Made by a program: the position numbers and the translations under genes. Positions 31,316-40,444 of a DNA stretch of 64,000 nt are shown here, piece after piece. The notes below the pieces were generated by a model. It had not been told where the DNA came from. It ran no database searches and worked only from the letters and a program-made list of their open reading frames with translations. Each line of letters starts with the position of its first letter. The stretch's first letter is position 1. The stretch is from assembly GCA_035479295.1 (NCBI GenBank), contig DATIIV010000012.1:65010-129009 (forward strand). The letters are read 5' to 3'. Source of the stretch: Candidatus Saccharimonadia bacterium (GTDB lineage Bacteria; Patescibacteriota; Saccharimonadia; UBA4664).

Positions 31316-32113
31316 CTACACCTCCACCGTCTTTATCGTCCACATATCCCAGGCCAGGCCGCGATTGCCCAGGTAGGCGAACGGCAGGTAAAAATACCCC
31401 TTATCGCCCCAACCGGTGCCCCAAGAGTTGCGGCCAATGAACTGCTGCTTGGTCTGGTCGTAGCCCACAATCAGTACGGCGTGGCCGCCCAGCAGTTTCT
31501 CGCTCTTGTGGGGCAGAGGAATGACGCCGGTCGTATTAGCGGCTGGGCTCTCAAAGCTCTCATACACTGAGATACCGGTAATGAACGGGTAGCCGCTAGC
31601 TAGGCAGGCCAGCATATCGCCGAAGGGATTGAGGTGATGGGTGACGATGCGCTGATAGGTAAGGGCTTGATTTTTTTCGGCTTCATCAAAGCACTTTTTG
31701 GTAGGCTTAACGGTAAACTTGGTAATGTCGTAAGGCCAATCCGTCTCGGGTGCGCTCCCAATCTTAACGAGAACTTTAACACCATCGCGCAGCCGGGCGC
31801 CGGCATCGCTGTTAACCGTGCCTTCCACATCGCGCTCGTTCCAGTAAATAAAAAGACGGCTCGGTGTCATAAAGGCCTTGCCCTCTTGGTGGCGGTCAAA
31901 GTCGAAAGCGGCGGCCAGCGCGTTAGCGGTGCAGCTGCCCAAGTGGCCTTGGTTGTAAATGGGCGGACATTTGTGGCGCAGATCGGCCTGGGGCGGCAGG
32001 GGAGCGGCTACTTGGGCTAGGGCGGCCGTGCCGTCAAAGATGTGGTCCCGTTGGTCGGGTAGGTCGGGTAGCCAGCCGAGGCCGTGGTTTTGAGGAGTAA
32101 CGTTGTGTGCCAT
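31316..32113 (-). CDS. papain-like (C1 family) cysteine peptidase, no signal peptide (paralog 1)
   Basis: Catalytic context NQGHLGSCTANAL (Gln/Cys), GGHAVLIVGYD (His) and GRNSWGTGWGDKGYFYLP (Asn-Ser-Trp). The N-terminus has no hydrophobic signal. Confidence 0.9.
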   Translation of the reverse strand: MAHNVTPQNHGLGWLPDLPDQRDHIFDGTAALAQVAAPLPPQADLRHKCPPIYNQGHLGSCTANALAAAFDFDRHQEGKAFMTPSRLFIYWNERDVEGTVNSDAGARLRDGVKVLVKIGSAPETDWPYDITKFTVKPTKKCFDEAEKNQALTYQRIVTHHLNPFGDMLACLASGYPFITGISVYESFESPAANTTGVIPLPHKSEKLLGGHAVLIVGYDQTKQQFIGRNSWGTGWGDKGYFYLPFAYLGNRGLAWDMWTIKTVEV

Positions 32114-32283: not shown

Positions 32284-32679
32284 ATGGCATTGCGAATTCT
32301 GATTGTCGAAGATTCGGTTAGCATTCGTATGTTGTACCAGGAGGTGCTACACAAGGCGGGCTATGAGGTCGAGGTGGCGACGGACGGCCAGGTAGCCTTG
32401 AGGCTGGCTCAGGCGCAGCCGTTCGACTGTATTGTGGTTGACATGTTGATGCCAAACCTTGATGGGCTGGCCTTTCTTAAGGCCTTTGATTGTCGACGTC
32501 ATCCCAAGACGCGCGTGATCATGGCCAGCAACTTGGACGATCCGCAGAAACGCGAGCAGGCGCTGGCGCTGGGTGCGGCCGCCTACATCATCAAGGCCGA
32601 GGTGTCGTTGCCGGAGTTATTGCGCAAGATTGATCCGACGCGGCCTGCTCCCGGAGCTTCGGCCGAGGGCGTGCATTAA
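32284..32679 (+). CDS. receiver-only response regulator
   Basis: ILIVEDS, CIVVDMLMPNLDGLAFL, VIMASNL, AAYIIKAE. 131 aa, ending 30 nt before zwf. Confidence 0.9.
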   Translation: MALRILIVEDSVSIRMLYQEVLHKAGYEVEVATDGQVALRLAQAQPFDCIVVDMLMPNLDGLAFLKAFDCRRHPKTRVIMASNLDDPQKREQALALGAAAYIIKAEVSLPELLRKIDPTRPAPGASAEGVH

Positions 32680-32709: not shown

Positions 32710-34035
32710 ATGGATGATATTCAGTCTCAGCCTATCTTTTTGATTATTGTTGGCATCTCGGGCGATTTGGCGCGTCGCAAGCTCTTGCCGGCTCTGCGCC
32801 AGATTGCGGCGGCGGGTGAGTTGCCACGCGAGTTTCGGGTTATCGGCATCACCCGCCGGCAGCTCAATGTGGCCAGCCTAACGGCCGGCGATGCCTTTTT
32901 GGCCGCGCACCTGGAGCTCTACCAAATGGATCTGGCCGAAGTCGCGGCCTACGACGGCCTTAAGCGACATCTGGCACAGCTCGAGCAGCAGTTGGGCGGC
33001 GCGGCTCAGCGGCTGTATTATCTCTCGGTGCCGCCGCAGGTGTCTGGGCCAATCGTGCAATTATTGGGCGAGTCTGGCTTAGCGGCTATGCCAGACAGTA
33101 AGTTGCTGCTCGAGAAGCCGTTTGGCACCGATCTCGCTTCGGCTGAGGACTTTATTGCCCACACCCAGCGCCACTTTACCGAGGACCAAATCTACCGCAT
33201 CGACCACTACTTGGCCAAAGAGATGGCTCAGAATCTGCTGGTATTTCGGGGCGGCAATGCGCTGTTTCGGCGCACCTGGAACCATGAGTTTATCGAGCGC
33301 ATCGAGCTGCTGGCCAGCGAAGAGATCGGCATTGAGGGTCGCTCGGCCTTTTACGAGCAGACCGGCGCGCTGCGCGATTTGGTGCAGAGCCACCTGCTGC
33401 AGCTGGCGGCTCTCACGCTCATGGAGGTCCCGCCGGCCGGCGACGAGACCCAGCTGCGGGCGGCCCGGCTCGCCGCCTTGCAGGCGCTGCAGCCGCCGGT
33501 CGATAGTACGCGGGATGTGCGCCGCGGCCAGTATATTGGCTACCGGGCCGAGGTGGCCAACCCCGCTAGTGCCACCGAGACGTTTGTATCGCTGACGCTC
33601 CGATCGCACGATCCGCGCTGGCAGGGTGTGCCCATTACGCTCACAACCGGCAAAGGCCTGGCGCGCAAAACCACCGAAATTCGAATTCATTATCGTCAGA
33701 GCGAGGCCGACGAAGCCAATGAGCTGGTGCTGCGCGTGCAGCCGCGCGAGGGCATCGAGCTTGATCTGTGGGCCAAGCGACCCGGCTACGACCATCGGCT
33801 CGAACGCGTGCCGCTCGAGTTTGCCTACAGCCGTCACTTCGACTCGCTGCCGGAGGCCTACGAGCGCGTGCTGGTCGACGCCATGCGGTCGCGCCGCAGT
33901 CTGTTTGCTTCGAGCGAGGAGGTACTGGCCTCGTGGCGCATCCTGGCGCCGGTGCAGCGGGCTTGGGGCATGAGCGATAAAGACTTAATCCTCTATCCGC
34001 TTGGCAGTGAGCCGGCCGCCGTCATTGGTCGGTAA
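32710..34035 (+). CDS. zwf: glucose-6-phosphate 1-dehydrogenase
   Basis: Dinucleotide-binding IVGISGDLARRKLLPAL, active-site RIDHYLAKE, and EKPFG. At 441 aa it is shorter than typical Zwf. Confidence 0.9.
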   Translation: MDDIQSQPIFLIIVGISGDLARRKLLPALRQIAAAGELPREFRVIGITRRQLNVASLTAGDAFLAAHLELYQMDLAEVAAYDGLKRHLAQLEQQLGGAAQRLYYLSVPPQVSGPIVQLLGESGLAAMPDSKLLLEKPFGTDLASAEDFIAHTQRHFTEDQIYRIDHYLAKEMAQNLLVFRGGNALFRRTWNHEFIERIELLASEEIGIEGRSAFYEQTGALRDLVQSHLLQLAALTLMEVPPAGDETQLRAARLAALQALQPPVDSTRDVRRGQYIGYRAEVANPASATETFVSLTLRSHDPRWQGVPITLTTGKGLARKTTEIRIHYRQSEADEANELVLRVQPREGIELDLWAKRPGYDHRLERVPLEFAYSRHFDSLPEAYERVLVDAMRSRRSLFASSEEVLASWRILAPVQRAWGMSDKDLILYPLGSEPAAVIGR

Positions 34036-34750
34036 TCGCTGCCATAAAGGCCGCTGCAATCGCTGCATAACCTCGCTCGTTGGGATGGAATCGGTCGGCG
34101 GCTAGCTTGCCCGTCCAGGGCAGGGCAAAGGCCGGCCCCATATCTGCTATTTTGAGTCCACGCTGCTGAGCCTGTCGATGCAGAAGCCGGCTGGCCGCTC
34201 GGTAGCGCAACACCGGTGCTAGCAGCGGCGGAATGTTAGGTCGGGCAAAGATATCGGCTACCACGGCGCCGTGTGGCAGCTGCATGAGCAAATGGTCGAG
34301 CCGCCGGAGCAGATGGCGGCGACCGCCGGGCTGAACCAAATCGTTGGAGCCGATCATAACGGTGATCAGATCGGGCCGGAGGCCCAGCTGATCCAGCACC
34401 GGCAGTTGATGATCGATCACGTCCTGAATTCGCCCACCACTAACCGATAGATTGATGAGTCGGTAGCTCCGACCGACCGCAGCTAGCCGTGCGTGGGCCT
34501 GGCCGACCCAGCCGCGGTCGTAGGCCGGGGCGCCAATGCCCTGCGACATCGAGTCGCCGAGTACCACCCACAGCCGGCCCGACCCACCAAGGGCTTGCTC
34601 ATTGGCTTGGTGCCAGGCCGCCGCATACGGCTCTGCTTGGTCTTGCACGGCTCGAAGCGACGGCCACAACTGCCGCAGTAACCGCCGTCCCAAGGCCAAG
34701 CTTGGGTGTAGGGGAGTGCGCCGCTGATAGGAGTTGGTCGCCAAAGCCAC
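34022..34750 (-). CDS. SGNH/GDSL-family hydrolase (esterase/lipase-like)
   Basis: Block I VVLGDSMSQGIG, block III IGSNDL, block V DRFHPNERGY. The GTG start is 8 nt downstream of the histidine kinase stop, suggesting the same operon. Confidence 0.8.
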   Translation of the reverse strand: MALATNSYQRRTPLHPSLALGRRLLRQLWPSLRAVQDQAEPYAAAWHQANEQALGGSGRLWVVLGDSMSQGIGAPAYDRGWVGQAHARLAAVGRSYRLINLSVSGGRIQDVIDHQLPVLDQLGLRPDLITVMIGSNDLVQPGGRRHLLRRLDHLLMQLPHGAVVADIFARPNIPPLLAPVLRYRAASRLLHRQAQQRGLKIADMGPAFALPWTGKLAADRFHPNERGYAAIAAAFMAAITDQ

Positions 34751-34758
34751 GGGCCGGT

Positions 34759-36987
34759 TTAGCTCTGGGCGGCGGCGCCAGACTCAGCCGTTTTGGCTCT
34801 AGCCTTAGCTTCGGCCGCTGCTCCGTTGGGTTGCGGCAGCACAATTACCGAAGTGGTCTTAAGCGGCAGCGCGAAGCCAAAGATGCTACCCTTGCCCTCC
34901 TCGGACTTAAAAATAATCGAGCCACCTTGGTCCTCGATCACGCGCTTAGCTAGGTACAAGCCCAAGCCGGTGCCGTCCGGCCGCTCGGCCTTGGCGTTCT
35001 CGGCCCGGTAAAACTTGGAGAACAGGTGACGCTTCTCGTTCTCTGGCACGCCAATGCCGCTATCGATTACCAGCACCTCGGCAGCGCCCTCAGACTCGCG
35101 CACCTCCACCGTGACGCTGCCCTTGGGCGTGTAGTAAATGGCATTATCGATAAAATTCATAATCACCTGGCGCGTCTTGCTCTCGTCGATCGACAGCATG
35201 GGCAGCGGCTTGTCGGGCTGCTTAAAGATGAGTTCCAGCTTCTTGCGCTCGGCGCTCGGCCGCAGCTGCTGCACCTCCTGCTGGGCCAGCTCGCTCAAGT
35301 CCACCGGCTGGCGCTGAATCATAAACCGCCCCGAGCTCAGTCGCGACACATTCAGCAGATCGCTCGACATCGACACCATCCGCTCGGCCGCCTCTAGCGC
35401 GTAGTTAACATACTCGCGCTGCTTCACCGTCATGTTGGCCTGGTCGTCATCGAGCGCCATCGACAAGTAGCCGGTAATGGCGGTCAGCGGCGTGCCCAGC
35501 TGGTGCGACGCCATCGAGATGAAGTCGTCTTTGGTCTTATCCAGCACCTGCAAGTTGCGGTTGGCGGTGCGCAGTCGGTGCGTCGCATTGCGAATCCGCT
35601 CCTGCAGCGTGGCGTTAAAGTGGGCGATCTCTTCGTAGGATTTAGCGTTCTCAATCGCTACGGCTAGTTCTTTGCGGACGATATCGAGCAGCGTCAGATC
35701 CTGGCCCGAATACATTTCGCCACTCATCTTGTAGCCCAGGAAGAGATAGCCCACTAGCTCTTTCTCGGTGCTTAACCTAATAATGACGCCTAGGCCATGC
35801 TCCTCTAGGAATGATTTGGTTGCACCGGGCTCAAGCTCATCTGCTACCAAGGTGCTAGCGTTAATGTGCTCTAAATCCTTGTAGGTAAGTTTATAACGGG
35901 GCTCGTCACCAATGAATGTACGACTATAAATACTGTTGTTCTCGACAATGATGATTTGACCAGTAGCGATGCGCAATGACCAACAGAGCGTGCGCAATGA
36001 CTTCTTGAGGAGCGGTTCAAGTAAGAGCTCTGAAGTCAGAATCTCGCTTAAATCATCGAGCACGATCTGACTGTCGTAGCGATCTCGAAAGAATATGCTG
36101 TCGGTGACCTTCTCGAACAGTCGGCGTAAAGGCTGAAAGGTAATGGCTAGAAATAGCGCCAGGGCAACAAAGACACCAGTTTGGGCTAGCGGGATATTAT
36201 TCTGAAAGAGAATGTTGCTTGCCGCTAGGATGGTAATTCCATACAGGCCAATAAAAGTTGTAAGAAGCAAAAGATAGGCAACTGATCGGGCGACGGCTAG
36301 CCTGATACTAAAGAGTCGATGCTTAACGATAGCGTACGAGACCGACCCCACCAAGAAAACGGTTAGCAATGGGCCGATGCGCGATATGTCCCAGTTGCCG
36401 ACGATAGCCGGAATGACAATGTTTGTGAGCACAGCCAAGATAATAAAACCCGCTATTCCCAGCATAATAAGACGAGTTTGAGCGCGAAGCCGCAAGTCGA
36501 TTCCAGTGTTCCGGTACAGCTTCCAGAGGTAGTAGCAAGATAGTCCAAACATCACCAAGATGAAAATGGGGTAGAGAGTATAAAGGCTGCCGAGAGCAAC
36601 GTTGGTTCCTCCGTCGGGCCGCTTTGAGACGGGACCAACCACGAAATCGCTTAAAGAGAAGATGGTGCCAGCAATAATAATGACGGCACTAACAAGCTGT
36701 CTCCGCTTGCTGGCGCTTTGTTTGCCGCCAAAGTAAAACGCAAACAACGTTATGGTGGCTAACACGAGAAAACCGGCGCCAAAGTCAAGGCGAGCAAAGA
36801 ACTGATCAAGGCCAAGCGTGGGAGCTCGGTCGGTAAGATAATTGAAGATCGTCCAGGCGGTGATTGACAGGGAGATGCCAAAAAACGCCCGACTCTCGGC
36901 TCGCTGAGGGTTACGCATAAACACGAGCGAGCCGAGAGCCAAATTGCTTACTGAGGCGAGTATGAGGATGGCGAGGTCAAATATCAT
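34759..36987 (-). CDS. multi-TM + GAF sensor histidine kinase (HisKA_7TM/PrsK-like architecture), paralog A
   Basis: About nine N-terminal TM helices (MIFDLAILILASVSNLALGSLVFMRNP...). GAF-like block (LVGYLFLGYKMSGEMYSGQDLTLLDIVRKELAVAIENAKSYEEI). H-box FISMASHQLGTPLT, N-box NFIDNAIYYT, DSGIGV, GTGLGLYLAK. ATGA overlap with the upstream gene. Confidence 0.9.
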   Translation of the reverse strand: MIFDLAILILASVSNLALGSLVFMRNPQRAESRAFFGISLSITAWTIFNYLTDRAPTLGLDQFFARLDFGAGFLVLATITLFAFYFGGKQSASKRRQLVSAVIIIAGTIFSLSDFVVGPVSKRPDGGTNVALGSLYTLYPIFILVMFGLSCYYLWKLYRNTGIDLRLRAQTRLIMLGIAGFIILAVLTNIVIPAIVGNWDISRIGPLLTVFLVGSVSYAIVKHRLFSIRLAVARSVAYLLLLTTFIGLYGITILAASNILFQNNIPLAQTGVFVALALFLAITFQPLRRLFEKVTDSIFFRDRYDSQIVLDDLSEILTSELLLEPLLKKSLRTLCWSLRIATGQIIIVENNSIYSRTFIGDEPRYKLTYKDLEHINASTLVADELEPGATKSFLEEHGLGVIIRLSTEKELVGYLFLGYKMSGEMYSGQDLTLLDIVRKELAVAIENAKSYEEIAHFNATLQERIRNATHRLRTANRNLQVLDKTKDDFISMASHQLGTPLTAITGYLSMALDDDQANMTVKQREYVNYALEAAERMVSMSSDLLNVSRLSSGRFMIQRQPVDLSELAQQEVQQLRPSAERKKLELIFKQPDKPLPMLSIDESKTRQVIMNFIDNAIYYTPKGSVTVEVRESEGAAEVLVIDSGIGVPENEKRHLFSKFYRAENAKAERPDGTGLGLYLAKRVIEDQGGSIIFKSEEGKGSIFGFALPLKTTSVIVLPQPNGAAAEAKARAKTAESGAAAQS

Positions 36988-37796
36988 GCGGGCGTAGGTC
37001 CTGTAAATGCTGGAAACTTGAAGACTTCTTGAAGACCCTCGCCCCGGAACAGCCAGCCAAATCGCTTTGGGTCATTAACGCAAAGGCGCGCCATCCAGTC
37101 CTCGATATCCACCCAAACGGGCAGGCTCAGACTTGAACCAAGGTAAGGCTTCCAACCTATCCCCTCGTAGTAGCTAAAGGGTTCACCAAGTCTGCGCTTG
37201 AAGCTGTTGTGAGCGGACTCATCAACTATTGTAACCCAATAGCGAGCAGCTTGCTCTAGTGTATACTTACATGCCATGTGGTAGATCGCCTTGGCGATCC
37301 GGCCCGAGTATGCGTGGCGATGGTAGGCCGGGACTACCCCCATTGTCACCATGTCTAGCGTAGTTTTGGGGCCAAAGTCGACAGCAGCGGCTTGTAGCGC
37401 CTGAGTTAGCGGTAGGTTCCAGTACCGACCAGGCTCGCTTGACTCGATGTCGGTGAGGCTTTTAAAGCCGAGGGGCGACCGTCTGATCACTCGCAACATT
37501 CCGGCTGGTAGACCGTTTGCATGGTCGATAAGGATAAAGAATGTGCTGTAGGGATCATATGGCCCATACTCTCTCTCTAGATCCTCTGGCGTGTCCCCGT
37601 AGAAAGCGAATACGTCCGCCTCCGCCAACCGCGCGACTGGCAATGCCCAGTGCGGTGTGCCGGTTTGGGGCTCGATGCGATAGACGCCAAATGGCTGCGA
37701 TGGCGCGGCATTACCCTGGTCCATGAGGCGGCGAATCAGGTCCTTAGAGCGAATCGTCTCTTCCCACTGTTCTCGCACTAGCCCCGTAGCGACCAC
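36984..37796 (-). CDS. GNAT/LuxI-fold N-acyltransferase-like protein (tentative), cassette A
   Basis: ARLAEADVFAFYGDTPEDLEREYGPYDPYSTFFILIDHANGLPAGMLRVI parallels the LuxI/NAS block (R..VF....W....E.D.YD..S.H....G...G..R). A later segment is DMVTMGVVPAYHR...IAKAIYHMACKYTLEQAARYWVTIVD...FKRRLGEPF. The GTG start shares one base with the upstream stop (TAGTG). Confidence 0.5.
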   Translation of the reverse strand: MVATGLVREQWEETIRSKDLIRRLMDQGNAAPSQPFGVYRIEPQTGTPHWALPVARLAEADVFAFYGDTPEDLEREYGPYDPYSTFFILIDHANGLPAGMLRVIRRSPLGFKSLTDIESSEPGRYWNLPLTQALQAAAVDFGPKTTLDMVTMGVVPAYHRHAYSGRIAKAIYHMACKYTLEQAARYWVTIVDESAHNSFKRRLGEPFSYYEGIGWKPYLGSSLSLPVWVDIEDWMARLCVNDPKRFGWLFRGEGLQEVFKFPAFTGPTPA

Positions 37797-38137
37797 TAGG
37801 TCTCCTTAAACTCGATGTGTGAAGCCTTGAAATAACGCTGAGTAAACTCCACAGCGTTATTCACATTGAAAGCCTTGCAGGTATATATGTCAACGCTAAA
37901 GAAGAGGCGCGGTTGCTCCCAGGCGTATAGGTGAGCCCCCGATGTTTCCCAGTGAATCCAGCCAGCCCAGCCGTAGAGGTCTGAGCGGTGTGTCACCGGT
38001 TTGATGAGTGCTGTCATGCCTGTTACGACAGAGAGCTGTTCAAGGTAGTCTTTAATTTGGGCATCATCAATAGGTTGGGCGCAATAGCCCTCAATAATAA
38101 GCCGCTGCCGGTATATCTCCGGCGCTAGATCCCTCAC
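37796..38137 (-). CDS. S-adenosylmethionine-decarboxylase-like (AdoMet_dc fold) small protein
   Basis: GTG start after AAGGAG with an 8-nt spacer. At 113 aa it is colinear with small bacterial SpeD/SpeH: RLIIEGYCAQPID aligns with ELYGC, WIHWETSGAHLYAWEQ aligns with the (L)AESHISIHTWPE processing/active-site strand, and FFSVDIYTCKAF aligns with AALDVFTCG. Confidence 0.55.
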   Translation of the reverse strand: MRDLAPEIYRQRLIIEGYCAQPIDDAQIKDYLEQLSVVTGMTALIKPVTHRSDLYGWAGWIHWETSGAHLYAWEQPRLFFSVDIYTCKAFNVNNAVEFTQRYFKASHIEFKET

Positions 38138-38215
38138 CCCATAGCTCCTTGTTCAGGCCCATCATACTCTTCTTAGGACCGCTAAGTCTACGTAAAAAGA
38201 TGAAATTAAAGCGTT

Positions 38216-38623
38216 TTACGCCGCCCCAGCTGCTCCCGGAATCTCGTCCTTGGTATAGCCCGCCAAGATGCCGCGGACGATCTCCTCGACCTGCTTGGGC
38301 TTGTGCTCGCTCTTGATGATGTAGCGGACGGCGCCGAGCTCGAGGGCGGTCTGGACGTCGCTGTTGCCGGCCAGGTTGGTGAGCACCACCACCGGAAGAT
38401 TGGCCACGGCCGGATCGGCCTTGAGCTGCTTGAGCACCTCCATGCCGTTAAGCTTGGGCATCATGATGTCGAGCAGAATGAGCGTGGGGTTAACCGAGCG
38501 TGCTTTGTCGAGGCCCTCTTGGCCGTCGGTGGCCAGTTCAACCTCGTAATTATTCGAGGCAAAGATCGTCTGATACATCCGCGAGAGTAAGGCGTCATCT
38601 TCGATGATTAGAATCTTAGGCAC
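38216..38623 (-). CDS. receiver-only response regulator (cassette A)
   Basis: ILIIEDD, LILLDIMMPKLNGMEVL, VVVLTNL, VRYIIKSE. The preferred start is GTG 38623 with GAGG 8 nt upstream. Alternative ATG starts lie at 38650 and 38734. Confidence 0.85.
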   Translation of the reverse strand: MPKILIIEDDALLSRMYQTIFASNNYEVELATDGQEGLDKARSVNPTLILLDIMMPKLNGMEVLKQLKADPAVANLPVVVLTNLAGNSDVQTALELGAVRYIIKSEHKPKQVEEIVRGILAGYTKDEIPGAAGAA

Positions 38624-38737
38624 ACTGAAAACCTCATTTACGCCCATCATACACGAGGCAAGCGAGAAGCGGAAGCCCTTAAGCATAAGCTTTATCAAAG
38701 GACAAATTTCGCGGTTGAGCCGATGGAGCGGCAAATG

Positions 38738-39180: not shown

Positions 39181-39603
39181 ATGAAGAATAAGAACGTTAT
39201 TATAACGCTCGTGGTAGCGATTATTATCGTGGTAGCGGTAGCAATTTATCTGGCTATGGCCGGAGGCAAAACCACCGGTAGCCCAATGGCTTCGGCCTCG
39301 CCGACGCCGCAAGCGGTGCCGAGTAGTCAGGCCGTGTCCACTATTAAGTACAATGTCTCGGGCGGCTTTAGTCCTAGCTCGGTCACTATTAAGTCGGGCC
39401 AGGCTATCACCTTTACGAATGATTCGGCCGACGAGATTCAGGTCGACTCCGATCCGCACCCCACGCACACCGATAATCCCGAGCTGAATGTGGGCACCAT
39501 TGCGGCTGGGCAGAGCCAGACCATTAAGCTAACCACCGCCGGCAGCTGGGGCTACCACAACCACCTCAACCCGAGCGACAAGGGGCGCGTGATCGTACAG
39601 TAG
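39181..39603 (+). CDS. membrane-anchored cupredoxin-fold-like protein lacking the Cys ligand
   Basis: N-terminal TM. A beta-sandwich-like C-terminus with FSPSSVTIKSGQAITFTNDS, DSDPHPTH and GSWGYHNHLNPSDKG. His-rich motifs are present but there is no Cys. Confidence 0.5.
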   Translation: MKNKNVIITLVVAIIIVVAVAIYLAMAGGKTTGSPMASASPTPQAVPSSQAVSTIKYNVSGGFSPSSVTIKSGQAITFTNDSADEIQVDSDPHPTHTDNPELNVGTIAAGQSQTIKLTTAGSWGYHNHLNPSDKGRVIVQ

Positions 39604-39658: not shown

Positions 39659-40444
39659 CTATGCCTCCACGAGCTTGATGGTCCACAGATCGGAGGTCAG
39701 CTCGCGATCGGTGAGGTAGGCGAGCGGCAGGTAAAAGTAGCCGGCGTCGCCCCAGCGCTTGCCCCACGAGTTGCGGCAGATGAAGTAGCCAGCGGCCATG
39801 TCGTAGCCCACCACCAGGATGGCGTGGCCACCCAGGAGCTCCTCGTTGGGCTTCGGCACGGGAATGACGCCGGTGCGGTTGGCCTCGTCGCTCTCAAAGC
39901 TGGCGTAGACCGCGATGCCGGCCACGAACGGGCGGCCGGCCGCCAAGCAGCTGCGCATGTTGGTGTCGTCGCTCGTTACCTTGATGCGAGCGTACGACAG
40001 CACCTGGTTGGAGAGCGCGTCAGCGTAGCACTGGGCGGACGGCTTGACGGTGAAGCGGCTGATGTCGTACAGCCACTCGCTCTCGGGCGGCACGCCCAGC
40101 TTGGCCAGAACCTTCATGCCGTCGCGAAGGTAGGCGCCGGCGTCGGTGTCGACGGTGCCCTCGCGTGCGCGCTCATTGTAGTAAATGAACAGCCGGCTCG
40201 GGCCGATGGGCTCCTGACCCTGCCGGCGACGCTCCATGTCGTAGGCCGCCGCCAGCGCGTTGGCGGTGCAGCTGCCCAGCTGGCCCTGGTCGTACACGTC
40301 CGGGCAGTCCGGGCGCAGGTCGATGCTATTGGGCAGCTGCGAGGGGCGGATGTCTAGGCCGGCGCGGTCGAACTTGTGGTCGCGGGGGTCGCGCGGATCG
40401 GGGATATTCCCGAGGCCGTGGCCGCGGGGCGTTACGAGCGCCAT
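39659..40444 (-). CDS. papain-like (C1 family) cysteine peptidase, no signal peptide (paralog 2)
   Basis: DQGQLGSCTANAL, GGHAILVVGYD, CRNSWGKRWGDAGYFYLP. Colinear with 31316..32113 and roughly two-thirds identical by eye. Confidence 0.9.
   Translation of the reverse strand: MALVTPRGHGLGNIPDPRDPRDHKFDRAGLDIRPSQLPNSIDLRPDCPDVYDQGQLGSCTANALAAAYDMERRRQGQEPIGPSRLFIYYNERAREGTVDTDAGAYLRDGMKVLAKLGVPPESEWLYDISRFTVKPSAQCYADALSNQVLSYARIKVTSDDTNMRSCLAAGRPFVAGIAVYASFESDEANRTGVIPVPKPNEELLGGHAILVVGYDMAAGYFICRNSWGKRWGDAGYFYLPLAYLTDRELTSDLWTIKLVEA

Follow-up and report, generated by a model that had tools for sequence, protein, structure and literature searches.

The AdoMetDC-like gene analysed here lies in a 64-kb window of a Candidatus Saccharimonadia contig, where an open reading frame for a 113-aa protein (37796..38137, minus strand) begins at a GTG codon, with an AAGGAG sequence seven nucleotides 5′ of the start. 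The next gene downstream, encoding a 270-aa GNAT-fold protein hereafter called the partner (36984..37796, minus strand), starts with a GTG on the last base of the stop codon of the first gene (TAGTG). The end of the partner gene in turn overlaps by 4 nt the start of the gene of a 742-aa sensor histidine kinase (34759..36987, minus strand), which is composed of a 7TM region (HisKA_7TM in Pfam), a middle region that is GAF in the orthologues from loci L001 and L092, and HisKA and HATPase_c domains. The operon partners named in a preliminary description of this DNA, an acyltransferase-like protein and a kinase, are thus both translationally coupled, by overlaps of 1 nt and 4 nt. On the other side, 78 nt upstream of the AdoMetDC-like gene, lies a single-domain CheY-like response regulator of 156 aa as called (38216..38686, minus strand; Response_reg, 85.7 bits), and between these two genes a consensus scan placed a weak promoter-like site, TAGACT-18-TATGAT (38161..38190, minus strand); the scan returned five sites against 2.7 ± 1.8 expected, which is not above chance, and terminator counts were likewise no higher than in shuffled sequences. 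A 242-aa SGNH/GDSL hydrolase (34022..34750, minus strand; Pfam Lipase_GDSL) follows 8 nt past the kinase stop. It may close the operon, though only in the present lineage, and it was not a recurrent neighbour in the 80 loci compared.

The 113-aa protein had been read as an AdoMet-decarboxylase-fold protein colinear with SpeH, and both profile and structure comparisons bore this out. Its match to PF02675 (AdoMet_dc) scored 44.6 bits against a GA of 25 (E 2e-11), with residues 16–112 covering profile positions 5–103 of 107. The AlphaFold (AF2) model, with a pLDDT of 96, was matched by Foldseek to the Thermotoga maritima AdoMetDC structures 1tmi, 1vr7 and 1tlu with TM-scores of 0.78–0.81 and r.m.s.d. 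values of 2.2–2.4 Å (E 8e-9 to 5e-8, ~20% identity). As modelled, the protein is a member of the class 1b AdoMetDC fold, and it is colinear with T. maritima SpeH (TM0655; 1TLU/1TMI/1VR7) from end to end; the two have in common the strands Gly-x-x-Gly and Asp-x-(F/Y)-Thr-Cys, the Ser and, as far as sequence can tell, the arrangement in two half-sites. The relation to AdoMetDC is visible only by Pfam, hhalign and fold search: phmmer with the protein alone found nothing relevant in the PDB, a narrow family profile gave only spurious RRM-domain matches there (E ~0.05), and BLAST with T. maritima SpeH did not recover the gene. Homologues numbered 2,546 (~2,500 clusters at 90% identity), the best 120 at ~70% identity, and 358 matching stretches were found across GTDB species-representative genomes; a tblastn search of 50,697 phage records found none near the window protein and one marginal match for P0195. 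The clade is distinct and very conserved, and is marked by the motifs DLAP.I.RQRL.IEG and GWAGWIHWETSGAH.YAW...FFSVDIYTCK.F.

Residues 60–73 of the protein read WIHWETSGAHLYAW (codons 37919..37960, minus strand), a central strand-turn-strand that contains the putative cleavage bond T65/S66 (codons 37940..37945) along with two invariant residues, H69 and Y71. As the preliminary description had noted, the Glu here is followed by Thr-Ser-Gly and the canonical E-S-H motif is absent. In an hhalign alignment (78%), S66 paired with T. maritima Ser63, and C87 within DIYTCK (codon 37877..37879, minus strand) paired with the catalytic Cys83; counting from the conserved Gly ten residues upstream also put S66 at the Ser63 position. 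The Ser, suspected earlier of being shifted, therefore occupies its canonical place, and it is the Glu that is displaced, standing one residue further from the Ser than in SpeH. S66 could also be aligned with the processing Ser of SpeDC, hhalign placing ETS on ETS. Nor is the site uniquely rewritten, as had been proposed, since the ornithine decarboxylase (ODC) domain of D. phosphitoxidans SpeDC self-cleaves at the Ser of QLIETS/LISGHFAN, an identical E-T-S, and its S229A mutant showed no detectable ODC activity (PMC10407285), giving a Thr-Ser processing bond a direct precedent in the fold. Of 201 unique sequences, 200 carry S66, and the same count holds for H69 and for C87. If cleaved at T65/S66, the protein would yield chains with calculated masses of 7,576.6 Da (residues 1–65) and 5,688.3 Da (pyruvoyl 66–113).

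Several residues that define AdoMetDC are altered. The Glu directly before the Ser contacts the adenine of SAM (PMC1282579); the equivalent of T. maritima E62 is T65 here, and is Thr in 95% of the sequences, otherwise Ser or Ala. The Pro of W-P-E, which is conserved across all bona fide AdoMetDCs (PMC10407285), is absent, its position being filled by E/D74 in the clade. In the gapless SpeH alignment, Tyr71 falls at the position of His68 (Ser+5), which is essential for AdoMetDC processing (PMC10407285), Ala58 falls at Ser55, and the invariant His stands at Ser+3. A gapped SpeDC alignment sets H69 on the catalytic His, and as it does so only by way of a two-residue gap, the His68 equivalent could be either H69 or Y71; H69 is replaced in ~40% of the more divergent single-domain relatives. 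In addition, the TIGR03330 SpeH equivalog scored 20.4 bits, below its curated cutoff of 75.65. Unlike in SpeH/SpeD, no spermidine synthase partner was seen within the 64-kb window, where tblastn with an E. coli SpeE query returned nothing (best E 1.8), and neither the annotated ±10 kb nor the recurrent neighbours of the 80 loci included speE or polyamine genes; the earlier statement that polyamine enzymes are absent from the window thus stands. Public databases label members of the clade S-adenosylmethionine decarboxylase, via Pfam. Given an equivalog score of about 20 bits, the loss of both the adenine-contacting Glu and the WPE Pro, and no speE nearby, this label is almost certainly wrong; it calls for correction, and the clade offers an enzyme activity still to be found.

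The clade resembles SpeDC, a group of pyruvoyl-dependent L-ornithine decarboxylases that arose from class 1b AdoMetDC (Li, Liang, Phillips & Michael 2023), in its fold family, its Glu-Thr-Ser site, the position of the Ser 10 residues from a conserved Gly, a Cys ~20 residues downstream and the loss of the adenine-contacting Glu (PMC10407285). By contrast, among the SpeDC diagnostic residues at S−5, S−1, S+6 and C−6, positions inferred from the sequences in Fig. S5 of PMC10407285, only the Thr (S−1) is shared, with I61, A72 and S81 replacing Gln (S−5), Phe (S+6) and Tyr (C−6), respectively. The clade further differs from SpeDC in its Tyr at S+5, its invariant His at S+3, a Ser-to-Cys spacing of 21 rather than 20, and invariant Trp-rich motifs and an N-terminal DLAP.I.RQRL.IEG of its own. 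With three of the four diagnostic residues missing and no speD/speE, casdh/casdc or hss neighbours, membership of the clade in SpeDC was rejected. Assignment to the SpeDA pyruvoyl arginine decarboxylases, whose central region departs little from bona fide AdoMetDC except in lacking the Pro, was rejected as well, the central motif WIHWETSGAHLYAWEQP differing from VVVISESHLTIHTWPE at most positions.

The partner is the next gene downstream of the AdoMetDC-like gene in 71 of 77 loci, and the two are fused in at least three clean cases (P0158, P0159 and P0160), and also in P0162 and P0153. Its best structural matches were FeeM and LuxI-type synthases, which place it in the FeeM/LuxI-type branch of GNAT-fold proteins as a variant. 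At the sequence level, none of 31 partner sequences matched PF00765 (Autoind_synth) at E ≤ 0.1, PF13444 (Acetyltransf_5) and PF21926 (FeeM) matched only sporadically among these 31, and hhalign of the partner against a LasI/TofI/BjaI/RpaI profile gave a non-significant 14%; the invariant LuxI Arg (R101, A6 numbering) is Thr151 in the partner. Unlike LuxI and FeeM, the partner is ~70–90 residues longer, with an N-terminal helical extension, and relies on an AdoMetDC-fold protein, whether encoded on its own or fused to it; we know of no LuxI or FeeM system that needs one. Median identity of the AdoMetDC-like protein was 65–69% within and between phyla, with 65% between the Saccharibacteria and Actinomycetota proteins, against 29–39% for the partner.

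A sensor was encoded within 2.5 kb in 60 of 62 eligible loci; it was a kinase in 19 of them and a membrane GGDEF-EAL protein in 41, and both sensor-less loci also had no partner. Of all 80 loci, 25 were of the kinase type, mostly labelled Saccharibacteria, the GGDEF-EAL version being that of Actinomycetota. A response-regulator cluster, usually divergent in orientation, recurred in 26 loci, of which 24 were of the kinase type. Clustering of all ORFs from the 80 loci revealed no acyl carrier protein, ligase, exporter or speE that recurs across both lineage types. The neighbours are those given in the preliminary description, which had under-called the context: in both phyla the AdoMetDC-like protein is found together with a FeeM/LuxI-like enzyme and a membrane sensor. 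Where LuxI systems have LuxR, the sensor here is either the 7TM kinase or the GGDEF-EAL protein. An hhalign comparison of the 7TM input region of the kinase with the multi-pass N-terminus of the GGDEF-EAL protein gave a probability of 0.2%, and with no detectable shared input domain, there is no support for one type of receptor reading one ligand in both. Sensor adjacency might also reflect regulation of the gene pair rather than sensing of its product. Bernard et al. 2020 described 18 LuxI homologues adjoining a sensory kinase in CPR bacteria, Saccharibacteria among them, and put these forward as complete quorum-sensing systems (PMC7567580). Some of these LuxI-kinase pairs may be the same cassette, although that report makes no mention of a decarboxylase, the Actinomycetota GGDEF-EAL version, fusions or tandem forms (PMC7567580).

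Because it is paired with an autoinducer-synthase-like acyltransferase beside a membrane sensor, the AdoMetDC-like protein looks like a part of a small-molecule signalling cassette of Saccharibacteria and Actinomycetota rather than a polyamine enzyme. The likeliest reading, to which we give a probability of roughly 45%, is that it is a self-processing pyruvoyl decarboxylase that feeds an N-acyltransferase making a signal-like molecule. The proenzyme would dimerise and cleave itself at T65/S66, as SpeDC does at its E-T-S, into a 7.6-kDa β chain and a 5.7-kDa α chain bearing an N-terminal pyruvoyl group. The pyruvoyl enzyme would then decarboxylate an amino acid, probably one other than SAM given the Thr in place of the adenine-contacting Glu and the missing WPE Pro, and the partner would N-acylate the resulting amine from an acyl-CoA or acyl-ACP donor. 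More speculatively, the N-acyl amine might act as a membrane-partitioning signal, read in Saccharibacteria by the 7TM-GAF kinase and the CheY-like regulator and in Actinomycetota by the multi-pass GGDEF-EAL protein.

Relatives with two AdoMetDC-like domains in tandem bear on whether such a protein would be catalytic at all. In their C-terminal domain, S66 and G67 were kept in 25/25 sequences, as was C87 (25/25), together with H62, W63, E64 and R10-Q11-R12. In the N-terminal domain, by contrast, C87 was found in 0/25, and the residues kept were H69, Y71 and W73 (24/25 each) and D74 (23/25); position 58 of this domain, which in the gapless hhalign register is the canonical Ser55 site, was Ser in 22/25, Ser55 of T. 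maritima AdoMetDC being a processing residue. The division of Ser/Cys and His/Tyr/Asp between the two domains argues for a live composite active site. Its elements make up two half-sites that complement each other, as they do in dimers of canonical AdoMetDC, and the split agrees with the published one, with Ser/Cys in one half of AdoMetDC and His/Glu in the other (PMC1282579). The tandem relatives resemble the eukaryotic class 2 AdoMetDC and the V. vadensis fusion of SpeD with a degraded SpeDC in joining two class 1b units of which only one keeps the self-cleavage Ser and the Cys (PMC10407285). Unlike class 2 AdoMetDC, whose C-terminal domain has no self-cleavage site (PMC10407285), they represent an independent event in a different clade, and it is their C-terminal unit that keeps Ser/Cys. 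The tandem-type locus L092 carries the same 7TM-GAF kinase type; a 292-aa protein beside its tandem gene was considered as a diverged partner, for which hmmsearch and Pfam gave no match and hhalign gave 3%.

These relatives also weigh on the best surviving alternative, in which the protein is a non-catalytic module that does not self-process and serves the GNAT or the sensor as a subunit for ligand binding or activation, with the trypanosome prozyme and the spermine synthase N-terminal domain as parallels. The Tyr and Ala found at the essential His68 and at Ser55 in the gapless SpeH alignment would fit such a role, as would the appearance of the prozyme heterodimer and spermine synthase among the Foldseek matches of the protein; an obligate regulatory subunit might well be fused or tightly coupled to the partner, and very high conservation can stem from multiple binding partners. 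However, known non-catalytic AdoMetDC homologues have lost both the Ser and the Cys, whereas here S66 and C87 are retained almost without exception, and in the tandem relatives the pair is kept in exactly one domain, with the His/Tyr/Asp set in the other. A degraded SpeD2 domain without the processing Ser and Cys has been described (PMC10407285). Of the three options offered in the preliminary description (a shifted Ser, a different mechanism or a non-catalytic module), the last is accordingly the least favoured, and we consider it unlikely.

A further reading, which we also regard as unlikely and rank just after the non-catalytic one, keeps a pyruvoyl decarboxylase and returns it to polyamine metabolism, as an arginine, ornithine or lysine decarboxylase like SpeDA or SpeDC, with the GNAT acylating a polyamine for homeostasis or detoxification as SpeG or PaiA does and the sensors merely regulating the operon. 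The E-T-S site is common to SpeDC ODCs, and AdoMetDC homologues have repeatedly turned into arginine decarboxylases (ADCs) or ODCs, with cases among CPR bacteria and Actinomycetota (PMC10407285). The GNAT proteins that Foldseek matched to the partner also included two polyamine acetyltransferases, SpeG and PaiA. The clade, unlike SpeDC, stands beside a FeeM/LuxI-like GNAT and sensors and does not cluster with speD/speE, casdh/casdc or hss.

It is improbable that SAM itself is the substrate, with the protein binding or decarboxylating SAM and the LuxI-like partner acylating SAM or decarboxylated SAM into a new autoinducer, as a two-component analogue of an AHL synthase. SAM is the ancestral ligand of the fold; LuxI-type enzymes, which take SAM as amine donor, are among the closest structural matches of the partner, and the clade retains an acidic residue, E/D74, as the His strand ends on its C-terminal side, the location of the ribose-binding Glu in AdoMetDC. 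However, the Thr at the adenine-contacting Glu is shared with the non-SAM SpeDC enzymes, the diagnostic WPE Pro is gone and the SpeH equivalog score lies far under its cutoff. In addition, the core family has Ser at position 52, which in the gapless hhalign register corresponds to T. maritima position 49, an adenine-stacking Phe. We give very little credence to an ordinary SpeD/SpeH with speE elsewhere in the genome, which has the Pfam-derived database annotation in its favour and the equivalog score, the missed T. maritima SpeH BLAST and the altered SAM-contact residues against it, or to a toxin-antitoxin or defence pair with a GNAT toxin, which a small gene overlapping a GNAT ORF and the GNAT toxin 7byy among the partner Foldseek matches might suggest, but PADLOC models matched neither the AdoMetDC-like protein nor the partner, conservation is far higher in the small protein than in the GNAT, and the pair is fused in several lineages and always chromosomal beside sensors.

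To return to the preferred reading, a pyruvoyl decarboxylase feeding an N-acyltransferase, its novelty appears to lie in the genomic context, namely the GNAT pairing and the membrane sensor. To our knowledge, every AdoMetDC-fold enzyme described so far decarboxylates SAM, arginine or ornithine in polyamine metabolism, signalling of the acyl-homoserine-lactone type has not been established for Actinomycetota, and chemical communication has been little studied in the genome-reduced Saccharibacteria. As the protein is coupled both with a membrane sensor and with a protein resembling autoinducer synthases, the cassette is a concrete candidate, open to experimental test, for a small-molecule signalling system of a new type. 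A bolder and rather doubtful extension is that the two proteins form a new autoinducer synthase, making an N-acyl-amine or SAM-derived signal with dedicated sensors, in which the GGDEF-EAL protein would control c-di-GMP and the signal would provide a channel shared by episymbiont and host. TM7x and other cultivated Saccharibacteria live as epibionts on Actinomyces (PMC6166536), and given this lifestyle and the 65% identity across phyla, the same molecule could link the episymbiont and host lineages. Cultured carriers of the cassette exist in Blastococcus, Modestobacter, Geodermatophilus and Trujillonella, so that its biochemistry and genetics are feasible now.

The 113-aa AdoMetDC-like ORF (37796..38137, minus strand) begins at a GTG codon with an AAGGAG box 7 bases upstream, and residues 60–73 translate to WIHWETSGAHLYAW, the processing strand reported in the preliminary description, whose placement of the protein in the AdoMetDC family is also confirmed. 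The Pfam AdoMet_dc profile was matched over almost its whole length at 44.6 bits (E 2e-11; curated threshold 25 bits), and an AlphaFold model of the protein, with 26 homologues in the input and a pLDDT of 96, had T. maritima AdoMetDC structures as its top structural matches (TM 0.78–0.81, ~20% identity). The NCBIfam SpeH equivalog score was 20.4 bits against a cutoff of 75.65, and sequence searches of solved structures with phmmer and a narrow family profile recovered no AdoMetDC.

Profile-profile alignment with T. maritima, A. aeolicus and B. subtilis-like SpeH (probability 78%) placed S66 on the pyruvoyl-precursor Ser63, C87 on Cys83, D83 on Asp79, T65 on Glu62, A58 on Ser55 and Y71 on His68, with the family-invariant H69 two residues before Y71 on the same strand. 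Since S66 lies exactly at the canonical position, ten residues after the conserved upstream Gly, the processing Ser is not shifted, contrary to one of the options raised in the preliminary description. A Glu-Thr-Ser site is also seen in the SpeD-SpeDC fusion of D. phosphitoxidans characterized by the Michael laboratory, in which the ODC domain self-cleaves at the Ser of QLIETS|LISGHFAN...YLDVFSC and the SpeDC S229A mutant has undetectable ODC activity (PMC10407285, main-text table and Fig. S5), making Glu-Thr-Ser a proven self-processing site in the AdoMetDC fold. The ETS motif of the window family pairs with that of SpeDC in hhalign, but the window family has just the Thr of the diagnostic Gln, Thr, Phe and Tyr, carries Tyr rather than His at Ser+5 and has a Ser-to-Cys spacing of 21 rather than 20, and on these sequence features is distinct from SpeDC. 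The His register is ambiguous, because Y71 falls on His68 in the SpeH alignment whereas H69 falls on the catalytic His in the SpeDC alignment, in which a two-residue gap is opened.

The family comprises 2,546 clusters at 90% identity, with matches to 358 stretches in the species-representative genomes of GTDB, and the median identity of the AdoMetDC-like protein is 65% between kinase-type and GGDEF-type loci and 68–69% within each type. Residues 56–90 are nearly frozen among 201 unique sequences, with S66, H69 and C87 each present in 200 and D83, W60 and H62 in all 201. In an exhaustive HMMER search for divergent relatives (568 clusters at 50% identity, E ≤ 1e-3), S66-G67, Y71, W73, D83, Y85-T86-C87-K88, R10-Q11-R12 and E16 were kept, and E64, T65 and H69 were variable. 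Twenty-five representatives of this set are tandem duplications (~160–580 aa, mostly 225–255 aa). Their C-terminal unit retains R10-Q11-R12, H62-W63-E64-T65-S66-G67 and Y85-T86-C87-K88, with Ser66 and Gly67 in 25/25 and Cys87 in 25/25, but no longer has H69 or Y71. The N-terminal unit retains E16, S52, G56 and D83, with H69, Y71 and W73 each in 24/25, D74 in 23/25 and Ser at position 58 (the canonical Ser55 site under the SpeH-alignment register) in 22/25, with Pro in place of H62 and Cys87 in 0/25. In AdoMetDC, one half of the beta-sandwich contributes the pyruvoyl Ser and the protonating Cys, and the other half contributes the processing His together with a Glu at the end of the His strand (PMC1282579). 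The complementary retention in the tandem units fits this two-half architecture and thus provides strong evolutionary evidence for a functional composite active site; the two-domain relatives also parallel, independently, how eukaryotic class 2 AdoMetDC originated. The same division of Ser/Cys and His/Tyr between units speaks against the non-catalytic reading raised in the preliminary description, and a non-catalytic subunit is in our view unlikely. Instead, the way residues are conserved and the precedent set by SpeDC suggest that the proenzyme would dimerise and self-cleave between T65 and S66 to yield a pyruvoyl enzyme, and such self-processing of the window protein seems likely.

At the Glu position directly before the Ser, the window protein carries Thr, as do SpeDC ODCs. 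A polyamine-type ADC or ODC working with an acetylating GNAT is rather unlikely in our estimate. As first noted for the window, no spermidine synthase was found, with no tblastn match in the 64 kb (best E 1.8 with an approximate E. coli SpeE bait), none in the annotated ±10 kb and none among the recurrent neighbours of 80 loci. Position 52, the equivalent of T. maritima Phe49 under the SpeH-alignment register, is Ser in the window family, and Phe49 presumably stacks on adenine. We take the Glu directly before the Ser to be the adenine-contacting Glu of AdoMetDC (PMC1282579), and the Pro that every bona fide AdoMetDC has in W-P-E (PMC10407285) is absent from its position. Judged by these residues, SAM is probably not the substrate, and a SAM-based route resembling AHL synthesis appears improbable. 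An ordinary SpeD or a toxin-antitoxin pair, with PADLOC negative, is together very improbable. The lost SAM contacts suggest instead that the pyruvoyl enzyme would decarboxylate an amino acid other than SAM.

The adjacent GNAT-fold partner (36984..37796, minus strand) would then N-acylate the resulting amine, as its fold, coupling and fusions suggest. Among 31 partner members, Acetyltransf_5 was matched in two, FeeM in one and the LuxI family profile in none. Alignment with the LuxI profile (hhalign 14%) was colinear and paired invariant charged residues of LuxI with those of the partner (E42 with E76, R67 with R102, E98 with D148), but LuxI R101 corresponds to Thr151. Because this sequence support is thin, we do not file the partner under either family and say that it would work like a FeeM/LuxI-type synthase at the fold level. 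Functional coupling is supported by natural fusions of the two proteins in separate 50%-identity clusters, with P0158, P0159 and P0160 full length and both domains present in P0162 and P0153; these five proteins represent mutually divergent lineages. If the fused domain self-cleaves, the GNAT would bear the pyruvoyl alpha chain N-terminally. We give the decarboxylase-plus-acyltransferase pathway as a whole a probability of roughly 0.45.

A sensor lies within 2.5 kb in 60 of the 62 loci whose flanking sequence was sufficient, and both sensor-less loci also lack the partner. In 19/62, the Saccharibacteria-type loci including the window (kinase 34759..36987, minus strand), it is a 7TM(HisKA_7TM)-GAF-HisKA-HATPase histidine kinase, usually alongside a single-domain response regulator. 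In 41/62, all Actinomycetota-type, with Blastococcus, Modestobacter, Geodermatophilus and Trujillonella as cultured carriers, it is a GGDEF-EAL protein whose N-terminal ~330 aa form a multi-pass domain without a Pfam match. The tandem-type gene of another lineage (protein P0181, L092:2498-3229) again lies between a response regulator, accompanied by an unannotated 292-aa protein, and a kinase of the 7TM-GAF type. No shared input domain was detected between the two sensor types, nor any further gene family recurrent in both lineage types among the neighbours of 80 loci. Speculatively, from adjacency, the membrane sensor might detect the product; support decreases from self-cleavage to sensing, and a signalling role for the cassette is a tentative possibility.

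We found no paper on the AdoMetDC-like clade or its pairing with the GNAT partner. Bernard et al. 2020 (PMC7567580) described 18 CPR LuxI homologues adjoining sensory kinases, some in Saccharibacteria, without mentioning a decarboxylase, and these loci may overlap with the cassette. The E-T-S site was already known from SpeDC; what appears new is the clade itself, with Tyr at Ser+5 and His at Ser+3, its extreme conservation and independent tandem-fusion forms and, most of all, the fact that in two phyla it is obligately linked to membrane sensors and to an enzyme resembling autoinducer synthases. That the cassette is a new signalling system is a realistic but unproven chance.

In the window, an SGNH/GDSL hydrolase (34022..34750, minus strand), restricted to this lineage, begins 8 nt past the stop codon of the kinase gene; it might belong to the operon as an additional member, for instance as an esterase or amidase that acts on the product. 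The cassette region is flanked by two genes for papain-like C1 peptidases (39659..40444, minus strand, and about 31316..32113), and the window also has a second CheY-like single-domain response regulator (about 32284..32679) and a small cupredoxin-like protein (39181..39603, plus strand) whose N-terminus includes a hydrophobic segment. One related locus of the kinase type, on a contig of 505 kb, has a heliorhodopsin gene (L004:3826-4956) ~4 kb upstream of the cassette, and two Patescibacteria loci (L032:7261-11642 and L063:7174-11633) carry two tandem 7TM kinase paralogues after the partner gene.

The divergent single-domain relative P0195 (L094:3373-3777, L095:6001-6405, L096:1446-1850) has a Glu-Ser site (HWKESGMH...DIYTCKKF) and neither partner nor sensor at its loci. 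Its contigs, with many small unannotated ORFs and SET-domain, dCMP deaminase, Clp protease and sigma-factor genes, look phage-like; no close match was found among annotated phage genomes. A clade member with 66% identity (L082:61-399) lies at one end of a contig whose bin is assigned to a Woesearchaeota archaeon, where no partner was detected, and could reflect mis-binning or cross-domain transfer. Orphan Actinomycetota copies without partner or sensor occur in L018 and L088 (6001-6333 in each), the latter being a second copy in a MAG that carries a complete cassette in L072.
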